A stretch of 47,041 bases of DNA. Origin: a virus (lineage: Duplodnaviria > Heunggongvirae > Uroviricota > Caudoviricetes). Below, in pieces: positions 23,413-32,515 of the stretch. The position numbers and the translations under genes are program-made. The stretch is from IMG/VR virus record IMGVR_UViG_2541047923_000007. The stretch is one strand, 5' to 3'. The notes beneath the pieces are model-generated. The model did not search any database. It was not told where the DNA came from and saw only the letters and a program-made list of their open reading frames with translations. The first letter of the stretch is position 1; every line of letters starts with the position of its first letter.

Positions 23413-25511
23413 AACCATCCTCCGGAAGTCAGCCAGGGGTTAACATCGTCAGTTACTGTTTTCTTCCGTTTTTGTTTTTTAACAGGCGTGGGTACCGGTT
23501 CCGGTGAGGGTGACGGTTCGGTACTGTCCGGGACACACTCCAGCCAGGTTTCCCGGCTCGCCCACTCCGGTGCATCCGGCCAGCGGATCTTTTCGTATCC
23601 ATGCAGAATGACCAGAGCCTCGGCATACACCATCAGGTCAAAAGCTTCGTTGGCACCGCGACCCGGCTTACTCCATTTCCCGTCACTGCTCCGCTCTTCA
23701 TACGTCAGTTCGTCGTAAAACCAGCTCCCCAGCCAGTCAGGGAAATGCACATAGCCGGGACCTAGCGAGTCACGCCATAACGCGTTATTCACCCGGTCTT
23801 TCAGGGCATCCGTCTGAAGAAGCCAGAGCGGCACATCACCTGCGGCCTGCGCCCGTCGGCCCGTTCGTCCGGTGTTATCAGGGAATGTACGGGTGATCAG
23901 TTTTGCTCGCCGGATGCTGTCGCCCTTAAACAGGTAAATACGTTTACCAAGGCCATCACGACGGCAACGACGCCAGAATTTATAGGCATTATCAGTGACC
24001 CCGTCTTCACCGCCGGAGTCCACCGCCATTGCCATCAGTCGCATTTGTTGAGAAGGGTCGGAGGCCAGCGGCCAGCTTTTATGAAAAACATCCGTCAGCA
24101 GGACATCCCAGTCTTCCGGATAGCTGGCCGGATCAATTCGCTGGCTCTCCCCGTCGCTGTCACCGCGCAATGACTGCGTGATGTTGTAACGATCAATAAT
24201 CCAGCGTTCGCCACGGCTGCCATAGCCCGTTACCTGAACCACAAAACGGCGATGACGTCCCGCCTGCACATCCATTGTCGCCACAAGGAAATTAACGCCA
24301 TCCGGCACACTGCGGGAAGGAACTGGCTCTGCCCGCTGCTCAAGCAATTCACTTTTTCGTTGCTCCATGCTGGCGCGGGGAAGATAAGGTAATCCCCAGT
24401 CGGTATTGATAACCGTCTTGAGTGTCTCTTCACTTCCGGTTGTCTCGTATTCCTGTTCTGCAGTAAGCAGTTTGTAAACGAGTTGCGAGAGTGTCTGATA
24501 AGCAGCTGCCGGACCCTCCATCCAGAATGACGCAATACGTGAACGCCGGGGATCACCATAACGACTGCCATCTGCATTGATGGATTCACCATCCCGTAAC
24601 CAGACCCCACGTCCGTTCAGCTCGCGTTTTTGTTCAGGCAAAATCCGTCCTGAACAGGAAGGACACTGAATATAAGCCGCCTCACTTGCCAGCACAGGAT
24701 CGGCAATATCACGGAAACCAGCAACCACATCGCCGCAGGGCTGAAAATACTCACCACAGTGTGGACAGGGCCAGTACCAGCGACGGCGATCGCCACGGTT
24801 ATAGAGCGACAGGATCCCCGTGGTTGGTGGAGCCTCATGCGGTGAAGTCCGTCGCCATTTCACATCCTTCACATCCCTGCCGGGGGAACTCTCCACCAGC
24901 GTCATACCACTGGACATAAATGTGGTGGTACGTTTTGAGGCAAGAGAGAAGGCATCCCCCTCACCATCAATATCTTCCGGAAAACGGTCATAATCCGTCA
25001 GCGCCACGCATTTATAATCTGATGAAGACATGATATTGACTGACGGCCAGCCGATTTTCAGGTAGTTGCCAGCAAGGAATGTTCTGTCATAAACGTTGTT
25101 GTCATTTTTGTTCGGACTCAGGCGACTGACCACTTCCGGGCTGACGCGAAACGTTCTGGCGAGTCGTTTTTTGGAGTGTTCGCGGGCTTTTTCCTCCGTC
25201 ATCTGAATGATCAGCATATCAGCAGGATCGCAAATCACGTTGTAAATCACCCAGCCGTCAATCAGGCCGATAGTCTTGCCGGTTCGTGCCGGGCCAACAA
25301 ATATCACTGCGTCGTATTCACGCGAGGCCAGGCAGTTCATAGGCTCAATAACATACGGTGCCACCAGCGGATCCCATGGGACTGAGTTCCCTGCCCCCAT
25401 GGGCACCCGCATATACTGAGCAACGGCATCAGCAACCCGCATTCGTCTCGGTGCGCGAAGGATATAACCTGAATCGGTTCGTGCTGCCTTTGCGGTTTCC
25501 TGATTCAGCAT
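23409..25511 (-). CDS. A: Terminase large subunit (gpA-like)
   Basis: 700 aa with an ATPase Walker A-like motif (VGPARTGKT) and C-terminal nuclease region; follows Nu1. Confidence 0.9.
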   Translation of the reverse strand: MLNQETAKAARTDSGYILRAPRRMRVADAVAQYMRVPMGAGNSVPWDPLVAPYVIEPMNCLASREYDAVIFVGPARTGKTIGLIDGWVIYNVICDPADMLIIQMTEEKAREHSKKRLARTFRVSPEVVSRLSPNKNDNNVYDRTFLAGNYLKIGWPSVNIMSSSDYKCVALTDYDRFPEDIDGEGDAFSLASKRTTTFMSSGMTLVESSPGRDVKDVKWRRTSPHEAPPTTGILSLYNRGDRRRWYWPCPHCGEYFQPCGDVVAGFRDIADPVLASEAAYIQCPSCSGRILPEQKRELNGRGVWLRDGESINADGSRYGDPRRSRIASFWMEGPAAAYQTLSQLVYKLLTAEQEYETTGSEETLKTVINTDWGLPYLPRASMEQRKSELLEQRAEPVPSRSVPDGVNFLVATMDVQAGRHRRFVVQVTGYGSRGERWIIDRYNITQSLRGDSDGESQRIDPASYPEDWDVLLTDVFHKSWPLASDPSQQMRLMAMAVDSGGEDGVTDNAYKFWRRCRRDGLGKRIYLFKGDSIRRAKLITRTFPDNTGRTGRRAQAAGDVPLWLLQTDALKDRVNNALWRDSLGPGYVHFPDWLGSWFYDELTYEERSSDGKWSKPGRGANEAFDLMVYAEALVILHGYEKIRWPDAPEWASRETWLECVPDSTEPSPSPEPVPTPVKKQKRKKTVTDDVNPWLTSGGWL

Positions 25512-29823: not shown

Positions 29824-30039
29824 TTACTCTCCTCTCGCAGCCTTACGCCTGTCTTCTTTAATCTTGAAATAAAGATTTGTCAGGTACGTCAGCAGGCCAA
29901 ATACCAGGCTACCCAGCACACCTATTGCTGCCCACTGTGAGGGCGTGACTTTATCGAGCAGCTGTAAAAACCAGTAGCCAGCACTGCCTGCGGAGGTGCC
30001 GTAGGCAATGCCTGTTGAAATTTTGTCCATGGATTTCAT
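29824..30039 (-). CDS. Holin, S21-type pinholin with dual-start motif
   Basis: [24 protein letters not shown]...[11 protein letters not shown] closely matches remembered S21; GGAGGTG Shine-Dalgarno. Confidence 0.9.
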
Positions 30040-30290: not shown

Positions 30291-30686
30291 CTAACCTCGC
30301 ATGTCAAAGCCAGATTTCTGAAAATCTCTGTAGACTTCCGGATTGTTGAAGGCCGGAAATTTGGCTTTATGAGCTGCGGACTTTATCGCTTCGCAATAGG
30401 CTTTATCACCGTTACTGGTAGATATTTTTAACGCCGTGCCATCCTGAGAGAATTCCATATGCAACCTGCATTTTTTCCCTTTCCAGTTATGCGGCTCATC
30501 AAGTTTGGCATTAATTGCAGCTCTGATTCCCCGCGCTTGCGCCCCCCATTCATCCTGATCATCCCAGCGTCCTGAACTGCAACTACCTGTAGCAGTAGTT
30601 TTGTGGCAATCTGAAGGGTGTAAAGGTGTGCATCCCGCAACAAAACCGACCCAAAAAGTCAACATAACGATTTTCTTTAATCCCAC
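30291..30686 (-). CDS. Lipoprotein with TolA domain III-like C-terminus (copy 1)
   Basis: GTG start with GAGGAG Shine-Dalgarno; lipobox FVAGC; C-terminal KKCRLHMEF...GDKAYCEAI...NNPEVYRDFQKSGFDM resembles the TolA C-terminal domain. Confidence 0.7.
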   Translation of the reverse strand: MGLKKIVMLTFWVGFVAGCTPLHPSDCHKTTATGSCSSGRWDDQDEWGAQARGIRAAINAKLDEPHNWKGKKCRLHMEFSQDGTALKISTSNGDKAYCEAIKSAAHKAKFPAFNNPEVYRDFQKSGFDMRG

Positions 30687-30836
30687 TTCTTGCTCCTCAA
30701 TCCATTAAAATCTCAGCAATAGTAGTTGTTACGTCCGCCACTGGCTCAGAGCTGACTATCCGCTAAATTTAGCTCAGTGCCGTAGTTGTGTCAGAACAAA
30801 CCTAAGCCGAAACCGTTTATTACAAAACAATAAATA

Positions 30837-31265
30837 TCAGGGTTTAAAATCCAGCACCCCATTTTGAAATACTTTATATACTTCCGGCGAAGGGGGGGCA
30901 GGTATATCAGCATTCTTTATCGCATTCATCGCTTCACGACATAAATCGAGGTCTCCACTTTCTCTTTTAACCTCCAGTAGAAGGCCATTCGGGGCCATAT
31001 GCATTCTCAGTGTACACTCTTTTCCTGAATACTTACTCGCATCCCCGAACTGTTTTTCGATGGCGCTCTTGATTTGATGGGCATACAGACGGATATCCTC
31101 ACTAACATCAGAAGTACGTTCAGATGAACTCACATACTGTGTCTCTATTGCTTTATCGGAGTAATATGATGTACGGTCATGATAATTTGTCGATACAGCA
31201 TCAGTGCACCCGATAATAATCCCACTAATAATCAACGTAAGAATTGATGCGCTACGAAAACCCAT
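30837..31265 (-). CDS. Lipoprotein with TolA domain III-like C-terminus (copy 2)
   Basis: Lipobox IIGC; C-terminal region ...YAHQIKSAIEKQFGDASKYSGKECTLRMHMAPNGLLLEVKRESGDLDLCREAMNAIKNADIPAPPSPEVYKVFQNGVLDFKP aligns closely (about half identical) with the remembered E. coli TolA C-terminus. Confidence 0.75.
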   Translation of the reverse strand: MGFRSASILTLIISGIIIGCTDAVSTNYHDRTSYYSDKAIETQYVSSSERTSDVSEDIRLYAHQIKSAIEKQFGDASKYSGKECTLRMHMAPNGLLLEVKRESGDLDLCREAMNAIKNADIPAPPSPEVYKVFQNGVLDFKP

Positions 31266-31798
31266 TTTTCCTCACATATGTCATATAGTAAAGGATTATA
31301 TATACCGTTGTTTTGGACGCTCAAACAGCGAATCAGATCAAATAAAACGCACATTTGTTAACATTTACACAAAGTCTGCGTGGGATATTCTGAAAGAATA
31401 TCCATAATGTGGAGAGAATCTATTGAAGTGCATGGTGCCGGGTGCCTCCCGGTGAATTCAGTACCAGCACCTGAATCCGCGATTATCCCATATACCTACT
31501 CGCTGATTGCCCCTCCGCACAGGGGGATTCACCATGCCAGTTTCTTTTAACAAACTCCCCGCAAACCAGAGAACAGTCAACCGCCTGAATTGTGAAGTAT
31601 TTAAAAATTTCTCCCGCTAACTGATACCCGGCTAACAGTCTGGCGTTTTCTTTTTCAGCAACGGGAAAGCAACAACCACCACACCCGCCACCAGCACACC
31701 GTCAGCCAGCACTGACATTATCCGGCTGCTGCAATGCCATTCACAAAAACAGTAAGCAATCACTTTTTACCGTAACAGGTGATAATCCAGATATGTAT

Positions 31799-32152
31799 CT
31801 ACCCCAGATGAGTAATCCGAAGTTCATCCATACCACAGGTCCTGGCTATTCTGTTGTACTCCTGAACAAGAGCAAATAATTCTGAATTAGCAACCATGAA
31901 CTCATCGCAAACCCTCTGTATAGCATCACTATTCAGAATAATAACGTCTCTTCCCGAAAGACGATCAGGAGCACAGAACAAAACTGTCAAACGGCTGAAG
32001 GCCTTTGCTCGTGCTGCATTGACTATATCAATACGCTGCCTAAGGATGAAACACCCCGACGCCTCATCAATATTCACTCTACCCACACCATATGAATGAT
32101 AAATATTTAATGCTGAAAAAACCATTAGACCGTATAACAAACACTCAATCAA
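31799..32152 (-). CDS. Hypothetical protein (weak call)
   Basis: 117-aa ORF with TTG or ATG start and no clear Shine-Dalgarno; between the cargo locus and the tRNA cluster. Confidence 0.3.
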   Translation of the reverse strand: MIECLLYGLMVFSALNIYHSYGVGRVNIDEASGCFILRQRIDIVNAARAKAFSRLTVLFCAPDRLSGRDVIILNSDAIQRVCDEFMVANSELFALVQEYNRIARTCGMDELRITHLG

Positions 32153-32439: not shown

Positions 32440-32515
32440 TGGTGGCCCTTGCTGGATTTGAACCAGCGACCTGGCGATTATGAGTCGCTCGCTCTCACCA
32501 CTGAGCTAAAGGGCC
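32440..32515 (-). tRNA. tRNA-Ile2 (anticodon CAU, ileX/ileZ-like; Met-type anticodon)
   Basis: Near-identical to remembered E. coli ileX; anticodon loop CUCAUAA; 3' CCA. Confidence 0.85.

Follow-up and report, generated by a model that had tools for sequence, protein, structure and literature searches.

Two lipoproteins ending in TolA domain III in a prophage cargo locus, possible decoys for Tol-dependent colicins and filamentous phages

Between the antiterminator gene Q and the holin gene of a lambdoid E. coli prophage, contained in a viral DNA stretch of 47,041 nucleotides (IMG/VR record IMGVR_UViG_2541047923_000007, hereafter the window), two genes encode short proteins which, according to profile, sequence and predicted fold, possess a true TolA domain III (TolAIII) as C-terminus and which are lipoprotein precursors by sequence. 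Their likeliest function, to which we would give close to an even chance, is to act as decoys that are tethered to the outer membrane and draw off filamentous phages and Tol-dependent colicins. Entry by way of TolA is common to all group A colicins and filamentous phages, and tolerance to such agents is usually explained by mutations in a receptor or in tol, which carry a cost. If the decoy function holds, a transferable copy of the target domain would open a new path to resistance at little cost.

The cargo locus between Q and the holin

The gene of the 131-aa protein is called copy 1 and that of the 142-aa protein copy 2. The features of the locus, in the direction of transcription and with their positions in the window, are as follows:

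33480-32659, minus strand: antiterminator Q (PF03589, E=1.4e-54)
32578-32559, minus strand: tR'-like terminator after Q (sequence signal)
32515-32440 and 32339-32263, minus strand: two tRNAs after Q
31763-31632, minus strand: DUF3927 small protein, 43 aa (phrog_1470, 'TciB-like'; PGAP, PHROGs)
31566-31376, minus strand: STnc100-family prophage sRNA, 5' of copy 2 (Rfam RF02076, 114 bits, gathering score 47)
31295..31324, minus strand: sigma-70 promoter-like site TTGAGC-18-TATAAT, about 30 nt 5' of the copy 2 start (10/12, consensus scan)
31265-30837, minus strand: copy 2 gene, lipoprotein precursor with TolA domain III, 142 aa (ORF, PF06519)
31206..31265, minus strand: copy 2 signal peptide and lipobox (MGFRSASILTLIISGIIIG followed by C; sequence inspection)
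31107..31205, minus strand: copy 2 linker, residues 21-53 (Ser/Thr/Tyr-rich, predicted disordered)
30840..31106, minus strand: copy 2 TolAIII domain, residues 54-142 (C-terminal LDFKP as in TolA; both disulfide cysteines present)
30766..30794, minus strand: weak promoter-like site CTGACA-17-TAAATT, 5' of copy 1 (consensus scan)
30686-30291, minus strand: copy 1 gene, lipoprotein precursor with TolA domain III, 131 aa (ORF, PF06519)
30630..30686, minus strand: copy 1 signal peptide and lipobox (MGLKKIVMLTFWVGFVAG followed by C; sequence inspection)
30555..30629, minus strand: copy 1 linker, conserved and Cys-containing (TPLHPSDCHKTTATGSCSSGRWDDQ; near-invariant from Serratia to E. coli)
30294..30554, minus strand: copy 1 TolAIII domain, residues 45-131 (C-terminal FDMRG; both disulfide cysteines present)
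30165-30148, minus strand: intrinsic-terminator-like hairpin with T run, between copy 1 and the holin (sequence signal)
29824..30039, minus strand: P21-type holin, first gene of the lysis cassette (PF04971, E=1e-35; PGAP essD)

An earlier note, made from the sequence of the window, had placed the two lipoprotein ORFs within 30291-31265, each with a lipobox and a Shine-Dalgarno sequence, and had regarded them as cargo situated after Q and the tRNAs and before the holin, where Stx phages carry stxAB. This description holds: in related prophages a copy 2 variant occupies the exact stx slot, in the order Q, tRNA-Ile, tRNA-Arg, gene, nanS-p esterase. The G+C content of the cargo is 0.39-0.46 vs about 0.50 in the flanks, and prophages that have the same Q or the same holin differ in whether they carry it. 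Prophages with copy 2 only, lacking copy 1, exist, and a different prophage, in strain SE11, has the pair at 97% identity, under the locus tags ECSE_RS07405 and ECSE_RS29810. The lysis set of the locus is complete, with holin, endolysin and Rz/Rz1. The terminator announced after copy 1 was found as the terminator-like hairpin at 30165-30148, but the region of 530 bp 5' of copy 2, described as non-coding, holds the DUF3927 ORF and the STnc100-family sRNA. The promoter-like site 5' of copy 2 is also found in a 91%-identical variant prophage, and the CTGACA block 5' of copy 1 is, together with the sequence downstream of it, common to the upstream region of the copy 1 homologues of pO157 and IncK2. 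Such consensus matches to promoters and terminators are compatible with a moron whose genes could be active in the lysogen, a possibility already raised in the earlier note.

The two proteins and their families

Both ORFs are intact and preceded by a Shine-Dalgarno sequence: copy 1 starts with GTG (GAGGAG 6 nt 5' of the start) and copy 2 with ATG (GAGG 4 nt 5' of the start). By sequence inspection, the N-terminus of copy 1 reads MGLKKIVMLTFWVGFVAG up to Cys19 (lipobox VAG-C), and that of copy 2 MGFRSASILTLIISGIIIG up to Cys20 (lipobox IIG-C); in both, the lipobox pattern [LVI][ASTVI][GAS]C comes after a charged n-region and a run of hydrophobic residues (pattern check), and the +2 residue is Thr. 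PGAP starts copy 1 later, at M8, by which the charged n-region is lost; since the GTG start and the GAGG Shine-Dalgarno sequence are kept in the homologues of Enterobacter, Citrobacter, Serratia and plasmids, the precursor of 131 aa is the correct one. The lipobox is present in 109 of 120 members of the copy 1 family (among the matches listed) and likewise in full-length copy 2 variants of 65-91% identity, in the forms IVGC, LTAGC, LTTGC and LTNGC. In relatives the +2 residue is Ala, Ser, Thr or Gly, and it is non-Asp in both copies, from which, following the E. coli Lol rule, we infer sorting to the outer membrane.

Concerning the C-terminal part, both proteins match the TolA profile PF06519 well above its gathering score of 25 (Pfam; copy 1: E=1.3e-14, 54.6 bits; copy 2: E=2.4e-23, 82.6 bits), and phmmer against the TolA chains of the PDB yields 5e-9 for copy 1 and 5e-28 for copy 2. 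Both align without gaps to residues 334-421 of E. coli TolA, copy 2 with 52 of 88 identical residues (59%) and copy 1 with 27 of 88 (31%). The domain III-like C-termini, with copy 2 at about half identity and copy 1 more distant, had been proposed in the earlier note, and the motifs named there all occur in copy 2, which has QIKSAIE, GK.CTLR, IP.PPS, VY.VF and LDFKP in common with TolA. The cysteine pair (C363 and C388 of TolA) is invariant in both families and found in 95-97% of 60 representatives of short lipoproteins with this domain. Structure prediction followed by superposition, the check that had been suggested, agrees with the assignment (TM 0.93-0.94 for the two copies): both AlphaFold2 (AF2) domain models, predicted and not solved structures, have the TolAIII fold with a three-stranded sheet and flanking helices. 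The copy 1 domain reaches a pLDDT of about 90 or higher and, in Foldseek, a TM of 0.93 and an rmsd of 1.0 A to E. coli TolAIII (3qdp). The copy 2 domain, in the order helix-strand-strand-helix-helix-strand, has a pLDDT of about 90 and matches 2x9a_B of E. coli with a TM of 0.94, an rmsd of 0.6 A and 60% identity. Residues 13-53 of copy 2 have a pLDDT below 50.

Neither protein is a TolA, because the membrane anchor and the long helical domain are absent. In the 131 and 142 aa of the two proteins there is neither the inner-membrane helix nor the long helical domain II, and each consists before the domain only of 19-20 signal-peptide residues and a linker of 25-35 residues; without the TolA anchor and domain II, the proteins cannot couple to TolQR or replace TolA. 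Full-length TolA models are matched only at positions 265-362 of 362 or 293-386 of 387, i.e., over the C-terminal 80-97 positions. The cut-off of the TolA equivalog NF007065 (213 bits) is not reached by the two proteins (107.8 and 53.7 bits). For TIGR02794 (cut-off 59.45), copy 1 stays below with 47.2, whereas copy 2 lies above with 75.6, via the C-terminal 97 positions only, and therefore PGAP names copy 2 tolA. Neither gene lies in a tolQRA-tolB-pal-cpoB cluster; both are situated between the prophage Q and holin. In Pfam, nothing besides TolA and TonB_2 was found in either protein.

In RefSeq, such genes are labelled 'TolA C-terminal domain-containing protein' or 'tolA', and in PHROGs both copies belong to phrog_5772, of unknown function. 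In strain IMT16316, PGAP lists copy 2 as 'tolA, incomplete, missing N-terminus'; in SE11 and 2013C-3181 the same gene is a complete CDS. Both the name tolA and the tolA pseudogene call are misleading for copy 2. A full-text literature search retrieved no paper on stand-alone TolAIII lipoproteins, the candidate papers dealing with chromosomal tolA or matching in reference lists only. The novelty implied by the earlier note thus does not extend to the homology, which is already annotated automatically, whereas the function of short TolAIII lipoproteins appears to be unstudied.

The two copies are 29% identical to each other. They belong to different lineages, and the term paralogous, under which they had been introduced, applies to them only in a distant sense and not as a close pair. 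In a blastn search of 5426 complete E. coli genomes, copy 2 turned up in 898, and 959 of its 962 places are chromosomal; copy 2 and its variants occur in E. coli prophages only, always between Q and holin, on several prophage backbones. Copy 1 was found in 1269 of the 5426 genomes, at 826 places on chromosomes and 536 on plasmids. Its family is also carried by pO157 and by conjugative plasmids of the I-complex (IncK2/Z and others), and in Enterobacter, Citrobacter and Serratia it occupies chromosomal loci outside prophages; among the matches listed, the Enterobacter homologues occupy a fixed, non-mobile-looking chromosomal locus. The copy 1 family is older, near-invariant across genera and mostly found outside phages. 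That it might be a phage-specific family was rejected, one deposited phage genome standing against hundreds of plasmids and chromosomes.

A third family of lipoproteins with TolAIII is carried by Klebsiella IncF plasmids, and altogether, at 50% identity, the short TolAIII lipoproteins fall into no fewer than 49-60 clusters. This wider family becomes visible only by exhaustive search of representatives; a word-indexed homologue search with copy 2 gave 71 candidates and no true TolA, and the 80 loci kept from IMG/VR contained identical E. coli prophage copies only. The nearest relative is a true TolA for 17 of 60 short-lipoprotein clusters, which suggests repeated capture; some of these lipoproteins appear to have been captured independently. 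A recent duplication of the resident tolA was considered as origin and rejected. In the blastn search in 'distant' mode copy 2 matched 898 and not all 5426 genomes, so that no similarity to the host tolA can be detected in the DNA.

The linker of copy 1 contains the sequence SSGRW..EWG, which bears a faint likeness to the TolB box of colicins (DGSGW..PWG), with the key Asp absent.

Possible functions

That the two genes are non-functional debris, i.e., tolA fragments acquired by the phage with chance lipobox-like N-termini, is very improbable. In line with such an origin are the 'incomplete' tolA call of PGAP in IMT16316 and the truncated or frameshifted variants among the database clusters. 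Against it, the ORFs are intact with Shine-Dalgarno sequences and annotated as complete CDS in SE11 and 2013C-3181, the lipobox is kept in copy 2 variants down to 65% identity and in the 109 of 120 copy 1 relatives listed, the architecture recurs in the at least 49-60 clusters, and the resident tolA is not detectably similar in DNA, hence no recent fragment is involved. Moreover, dN/dS is well below 1 in both families: 0.08-0.15 in the copy 1 family, with 0.02-0.10 in the linker (equal to or below the value of the domain), and 0.25-0.39 in the copy 2 family (domain alone 0.09-0.34, linker 0.22-0.59). Being under purifying selection, the two genes are not fragments, and the interpretation as a pseudogene fragment was rejected on the basis of dN/dS and lipobox conservation.

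Strand beta3 of TolA (D418, K420) is bound by TolB, colicin N and the N1 domain of g3p, and the binding site of colicin A on TolA is 375-LLDIKP-380 (PMC4339652; PMC7391070). In copy 2, beta3 is LDFKP, the same as in TolA, the residues Y340, I344 and I348 are unchanged, and the colicin A box reads LLEVKR vs LLDIKP. In copy 1, beta3 is FDMRG, with the Asp and one basic residue retained in comparison with L417-D418-F419-K420 of TolA; Gln is found at the position of Tyr340, the colicin A box is altered, and the protein does not track the host TolA sequence. In the 60 representatives of short lipoproteins, the degree of conservation of L417, D418 and F419 equals that in 50 full-length TolAs; D418 is at 72% in the former vs 34% in the latter, a conservation of beta3 that is inseparable from constraints of the fold. 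With 59% identity to the host TolA and both mapped binding sites kept, copy 2 is probably a broad mimic, and copy 1, with 31% identity, Gln at Tyr340 and the altered colicin A box, probably has a narrower or different range of ligands. Such differing ranges would explain why both copies are kept.

As a decoy, each lipoprotein would lie at the inner face of the outer membrane and carry a free TolA domain III on its linker of 25-35 residues, thus offering the beta-strand-addition surfaces of TolA just beneath the outer membrane. The ligands that bind TolA, i.e., the translocation domains of group A colicins and related bacteriocins as well as g3p N1, would be caught there first, the TolB N-terminus also, though less than colicins and g3p, and a caught ligand would be stuck on a dead-end, non-energised receptor. 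The carrier, be it a lysogen, a plasmid host or a chromosomal carrier, would thereby become tolerant to Tol-dependent bacteriocins and filamentous phages. Invaders bind TolAIII with an affinity of 1 uM vs 40 uM for TolB, i.e., about 40-fold more tightly (PMC4339652), such that a modest amount of decoy could protect without disabling Tol-Pal. The earlier note had proposed two functions, a decoy for exclusion and a perturbation of Tol-Pal at lysis, and the presence of copy 1 and the Klebsiella family outside phages shifts the balance between them: it favours a function in the living carrier cell, e.g., as decoy or in exclusion, over one as lysis accessory. PADLOC contained no matching model for either copy, which shows only their absence from catalogued defence. 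Speaking against a decoy, copy 2 is confined to the Q-dependent late region, a region expressed most strongly at lysis.

Two other functions have to be weighed against this one; the biochemistry of a TolAIII decoy could serve another purpose. The lipoproteins might be accessories of lysis and release: expressed from the Q/pR' late transcript along with the lysis cassette, they would fill the periplasm at a late stage of infection, titrate the TolB N-terminus from TolA and block the mobilisation of Pal, and the resulting tol phenocopy (blebbing, leakage) would aid the spanins or the release of vesicles. The constant position of copy 2 and its variants between Q and holin on several backbones and the retention of the TolB-binding strand beta3 in both copies agree with this, as does the release of periplasmic proteins by periplasmic TolAIII, exploited in an RBP-signal-TolAIII leakage tool whose description cites the 1993 paper of Levengood-Freyermuth (PMC6195910). 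We nevertheless consider it unlikely: the copy 1 and Klebsiella families are mostly found on plasmids and chromosomes without lysis genes, holin, endolysin and Rz/Rz1 are already complete at the locus, the weak affinity of TolA for TolB (40 uM) would demand large amounts of protein, and the genes are set off as units of their own by the terminator-like hairpin and the promoter-like sites. An effect of copy 2 on lysis by its expression in the late operon may still be compatible with the spread of the copy 1 family.

Rather unlikely, too, is a role in envelope physiology, in which the tethered domain would bind TolB, CpoB or another periplasmic protein and tune Pal mobility, vesiculation or a stress response (e.g., Rcs, capsule), with protection as a by-product. 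The evidence for it concerns copy 1, whose homologues in Enterobacter (among the matches listed) sit at a fixed, non-mobile-looking locus, whose mature protein and Cys-containing linker are near-invariant (linker dN/dS 0.02-0.10), which suggests a conserved endogenous ligand and not an arms race, and which is not close to the host TolA (31%). Being invariant across genera yet so distant from TolA, copy 1 may single out one partner, e.g., the TolB N-terminus; and considering that it lacks Tyr340 and the colicin A box, does not track the host TolA and has a fixed Enterobacter locus, a partner like TolB fits it equally well as defence does. On the other hand, the copy 1 family occurs on prophages and at least two plasmid groups, as is typical of accessory competitive traits, and E. 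coli K-12, which is not known to have a second PF06519 protein, manages without one.

Beyond this locus, the decoy function can be extended to a general interpretation, for which we see a chance somewhat short of even: mobile elements of Enterobacterales would repeatedly have cut domain III from tolA and fused it to a lipoprotein anchor, creating a natural receptor decoy, and this class would be widespread and unrecognised, with tandem copies covering different sets of ligands. If true, about one in four complete E. coli genomes would carry a new class of genes for bacteriocin and phage tolerance, and an explanation would be given for an unnamed gene of pO157, of I-complex resistance plasmids, of many Klebsiella IncF plasmids and of 16-23% of complete E. 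coli genomes. It would then also matter for the ecology of colicins in the gut, for antimicrobials based on colicins or phages, and for the hosts used in phage display. The short TolAIII lipoproteins are, furthermore, natural probes of Tol-Pal.

Comparison with known systems

TolA domain III itself (residues about 330-421 of E. coli TolA; PDB 1TOL, 2X9A, 3QDP/3QDR, 1S62) is similar to both copies in its fold, its length, the alignment without gaps, the disulfide cysteines and beta3, and to copy 2 also in the colicin A box. There are, however, differences: TolA has its inner-membrane helix (SHLS motif) as well as the long helical domain II, and is encoded in the tolQRA-tolB-pal operon, whereas the copies are prophage-encoded, stand-alone domains on a lipoprotein anchor, which TolQR cannot energise.

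In the engineered forms of periplasmic TolAIII (the 1993 construct; pTA3Y of Wan and Baneyx 1998), as for the two copies, a free domain exists beside the resident TolA. Levengood-Freyermuth, Click and Webster (1993) are reported to have exported TolAIII to the periplasm of wild-type E. coli and thereby obtained tolerance to colicins E1, E2, E3 and A; an excess of periplasmic TolAIII reportedly also made the outer membrane leaky. Because of this damage to the outer membrane, a decoy would have a cost. The phenotype of the engineered domain (colicin tolerance and leakage) is the one predicted for the natural genes, but the constructs are artificial, soluble and overproduced, whereas the natural proteins are predicted to be lipid-anchored, with linkers of their own, and are presumably present at lower levels.

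Concerning small lipoproteins of mobile elements, Cor (phi80, N15, mEp167), Llp (T5) and TraT (F) are outer-membrane lipoproteins that protect their carrier at the entry step, and their genes typically lie, as accessories, on plasmids or in the late region of lambdoid phages. They block an outer-membrane receptor (FhuA, OmpA), whereas the two copies would mimic a receptor of the periplasm and titrate out the incoming agent, and no sequence relationship exists between them (Pfam: TolA and TonB_2 only).

The g3p made in the infected cell, which according to Boeke, Model and Zinder (1982) reportedly confers superinfection immunity and colicin tolerance, acts at the same step as the proposed decoy, the contact between ligand and TolAIII, and has the same expected outcome, i.e., tolerance to group A colicins and to superinfecting Ff phages. 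It constitutes the mirror image of the decoy: g3p occupies the TolA receptor, whereas the lipoproteins would occupy the ligand.

Finally, stx and the other morons between Q and holin share with the two copies the same slot, with tRNAs and an sRNA of the STnc100/PasD type nearby and with the cargo swapped among prophages; the cargo here is an envelope lipoprotein, in contrast to the secreted toxin or esterase of those morons.

Gene order between Q and the lysis genes

The window contains a complete lambdoid prophage that reads on the minus strand in the order integrase, exo, immunity, replication, Q, cargo, lysis, terminase, head and tail. The region of the two lipoprotein genes (copy 1 and copy 2) is identical in the deposited phage mEp460_ev081 and in the Qin-site prophage of E. 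coli IMT16316, and is organized as follows.

Features from Q to the lysis genes, in reading order
33480-32659, minus strand: antiterminator Q (PF03589, E 1e-54)
32578-32559, minus strand: tR'-like terminator, downstream of Q
3' of this terminator, minus strand: tRNA-Met/Ile2, then tRNA-Arg
31799-32152, minus strand: 117-codon ORF of phage family phrog_2873 (function unknown; E 2e-69), 3' of the tRNAs
31632-31763, minus strand: 43-aa DUF3927 ORF (phrog_1470), upstream of the sRNA
31566-31376, minus strand: STnc100-family sRNA (Rfam RF02076, 114 bits; gathering score 47)
31265-30837, minus strand: copy 2, 3' of the sRNA
30686-30291, minus strand: copy 1, 3' of copy 2
30165-30148, minus strand: terminator-like hairpin, 3' of copy 1
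3' of the hairpin, minus strand: P21-type holin, DUF1327 gene, lysozyme and Rz/Rz1 (lysis genes)

The DNA upstream of copy 2, described in the earlier note as 530 bp of non-coding sequence, turned out to harbour the STnc100-family sRNA (31376-31566), the core of which (31426-31537) recurs at 99% identity immediately 3' of stxB in Shigella phage 75/02 Stx; STnc100 has been linked to PasD prophage sRNAs (2026 preprint). The phrog_1470 label of the 43-aa ORF, 'TciB-like inhibition of cell division or resistance to colicin', goes back to phage P1 annotation; this putative function makes the ORF an intriguing gene to find beside two TolA mimics. The 117-codon ORF lacks a PGAP annotation in the identical region of IMT16316. 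Concerning the tRNA at 32440-32515 (minus strand), ARAGORN predicts tRNA Met with anticodon CAT and PGAP gives tRNA-Ile for the identical gene; presumably, it is of the lysidine-modified Ile2 type (cf. the ileZ-argN-argO set of Stx phages). The large terminase gene of the window is an intact 700-codon ORF (23409-25511). In the related prophage of IMT16316 (locus L002, 2913-15412), an insert of around 10 kb interrupts this gene; the insert comprises an integrase fragment, a primase, an Icd-like gene, IS1 and a second prohead protease/capsid fusion gene and looks like a satellite or a second phage.

Lipoprotein N-termini and TolA domain III

Signal peptide, lipobox and Shine-Dalgarno sequence are present in both ORFs, as had been stated from the sequence. 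The signal peptides, MGLKKIVMLTFWVGFVAG in copy 1 and MGFRSASILTLIISGIIIG in copy 2, are each followed by the lipobox Cys, and residue +2 is Thr in both. The lipobox is found in all copy 2 variants of 65-91% identity and in 109 of the 120 listed copy 1 relatives. Since the GTG start and GAGG of copy 1 are kept in its Enterobacter, Citrobacter, Serratia and plasmid homologues, the later start chosen by PGAP is probably wrong; with annotation from this internal Met, the charged start of the signal peptide is lost. The linker of copy 1 (residues 20-44; 30555-30629, minus strand; TPLHPSDCHKTTATGSCSSGRWDDQ) contains two extra cysteines and seems to be more than a tether, because it has hardly changed between Serratia and E. 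coli (dN/dS 0.02-0.10, a constraint equal to that of the domain). The TolB box of colicins is DGSGW..PWG, to which SSGRW..EWG in this linker bears a faint resemblance, the key Asp being absent. For the linker of copy 2 (residues 21-53), AlphaFold2 predicts disorder.

The earlier note had further proposed C-termini resembling TolA domain III (TolAIII), with copy 2 at roughly half identity and copy 1 more distant. A complete domain was recovered in both proteins by Pfam, phmmer, ungapped identity and Foldseek; both matched the C-terminal domain profile, both predicted folds superimpose on TolAIII, and the two identities bear out the estimate.

Similarity of the two C-terminal domains to TolAIII
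Pfam PF06519 E-value: copy 1, 1.3e-14; copy 2, 2.4e-23
phmmer against solved TolA chains: copy 1, 5e-9; copy 2, 5e-28
Ungapped identity to TolA 334-421: copy 1, 27/88 (31%); copy 2, 52/88 (59%)
Top Foldseek match to E. coli TolAIII: copy 1, 3qdp (TM 0.93, rmsd 1.0 A); copy 2, 2x9a_B (TM 0.94, rmsd 0.6 A)

The AlphaFold2 models of both domains (pLDDT around 90) show the helix/strand order of TolAIII; the two copies are 29% identical. Neither copy is TolA: full-length TolA models are matched over their C-terminal 80-97 positions only, and comparison with these models showed that both proteins lack domain II and the inner-membrane helix. For copy 2, the C-terminal domain by itself scores above the TIGR02794 cut-off, hence the RefSeq name tolA. 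RefSeq is inconsistent here, giving a truncated tolA pseudogene 'missing N-terminus' in IMT16316 (L002, 20738-20998) and, for SE11 and 2013C-3181 (loci L109, 3047-3475, and L019, 5001-5429), a complete CDS under the name tolA (cell envelope integrity protein TolA). Both labels mislead.

By the Nei-Gojobori method, copy 1 gave a dN/dS of 0.08-0.15 when compared with its homologues on plasmids and chromosomes, and copy 2 gave 0.25-0.39 in comparisons with its variants (by segment, 0.09-0.34 for the domain alone). Values below 1, the retained lipobox and a resident tolA without detectable DNA-level similarity to copy 2 (search of 5426 complete E. coli genomes) argue strongly against the genes being debris.

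Distribution of the two genes and of related lipoproteins

Of 5426 complete E. coli genomes, 898 carry copy 2, nearly always on the chromosome, and the family search retrieved its protein family from E. coli and Shigella only. All inspected loci lie between Q and the holin of lambdoid prophages, which differ in their lysis genes and have Q of either of two families. The 1.4-kb pair of copy 2 and copy 1 is found in 773 genomes, and together with the holin forms a block 97% identical to that of a different prophage in E. coli SE11. Relative to prophages with copy 2 only, copy 1 is an extra insert of around 0.7 kb; variant prophages with nanS-p-type surroundings possess copy 2 without copy 1.

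Copy 1 belongs to a lineage other than that of copy 2. Its family comprises 370 clusters at 90% identity, the listed best 120 of which share at least 78% identity with copy 1 and stem from Citrobacter, Enterobacter, Serratia, Klebsiella, Raoultella and Shigella. Among E. coli genomes, 1269 of 5426 carry it (826 chromosomal and 536 plasmid places), as does a single deposited phage genome. The homologue is situated at a fixed, non-prophage chromosomal locus in Enterobacter, near ars genes in Citrobacter, and beside nrdDG and a GmrSD/HEPN pair in Serratia marcescens; the latter surroundings, a GmrSD-type and a HEPN-domain gene (locus L007, 6001-8736), are defence-island-like. Alleles of 88% identity lie directly 3' of the relaxase gene on IncK2/Z and other I-complex plasmids of E. 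coli/Shigella (locus L017, 7001-7393) and in the leading region of pO157 (locus L016, 7001-7393), where the allele is an established gene placed between psiB-psiA-hok and toxB. The pili that serve filamentous phage If1 are made by I-complex plasmids.

A third family of TolAIII-bearing lipoproteins (144 aa, lipobox LITA-C, C-terminus ALDFRL, 43% identity to E. coli TolAIII) was found on around 310 plasmids, mostly Klebsiella IncF, and on at least 1000 contigs, e.g., directly 3' of a thioredoxin-fold gene on K. pneumoniae plasmid pMR0617ctx (locus L018, 5812-6246). The exhaustive profile search yielded 580 representatives (E up to 1e-3). Of the 150 top-scoring ones, 80 are 100-175 aa long, 49 of them with a strict lipobox pattern; a looser pattern applied to 110-175 aa gave 60, and a few short representatives have an ordinary signal peptide instead. 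Named short members (Erwinia, Klebsiella, Enterobacter, Serratia, Dryocola) bear domain-level names only. The nearest relatives of copy 1 are other short lipoproteins; beyond its own family, copy 2 is closest to E. coli TolA. Because true TolA is closest for 17 of the 60 short representatives, repeated capture of TolAIII is suggested.

Possible roles and comparison with known systems

Free TolAIII in the periplasm reportedly confers tolerance to colicins E1, E2, E3 and A (Levengood-Freyermuth et al., 1993). TolB, colicin N and g3p N1 bind TolA by strand addition at beta3 (D418, K420), and colicin A binds 375-LLDIKP-380 (PMC4339652; PMC7391070). The g3p of If1 also binds TolAIII (PDB 2X9A). Copy 2 has kept LDFKP, LLEVKR and Y340/I344/I348; copy 1 has kept the beta3 pattern (FDMRG) but differs in beta2 and carries Gln where TolA has Y340. 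Conservation of beta3 in the short lipoproteins equals that in true TolAs. In the favoured reading, a non-energised TolAIII hung from the outer membrane would intercept Tol-dependent invaders, a putative role of both copies that is about as likely as not. TolAIII exported to the periplasm renders E. coli leaky (PMC6195910); its weak affinity for TolB (40 uM, and 1 uM for colicin N; PMC4339652) would limit such self-harm. That the carrier cell expresses these genes is plausible, given a promoter-like site 30 nt upstream of copy 2 (10/12 consensus match), a weaker one upstream of copy 1 common to the plasmid alleles, the hairpin at 30165-30148, where a terminator had been noted earlier, and a G+C content below that of the flanks.

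A function tied to phage lysis is disfavoured, since copy 1 and the Klebsiella family have also reached plasmids and chromosomes; copy 2, being confined to the late region, may still contribute to lysis. Copy 1 may instead serve an endogenous partner, with which its near-invariance across genera and its conserved Cys-containing linker are consistent.

The TolA homology of both copies is already contained in automatic annotation; the architecture and likely role of stand-alone TolAIII lipoproteins are apparently undescribed in the searchable literature. In these proteins, mobile elements have put a known binding domain to new use as a free-standing lipoprotein, and interception of invaders is their predicted function, readily testable by experiment. 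The site had been likened to the stx position, and in some prophages copy 2 is indeed followed by the nanS-p esterase, DUF1378 and DUF826, the same 3' order as that after stx in Stx phages.
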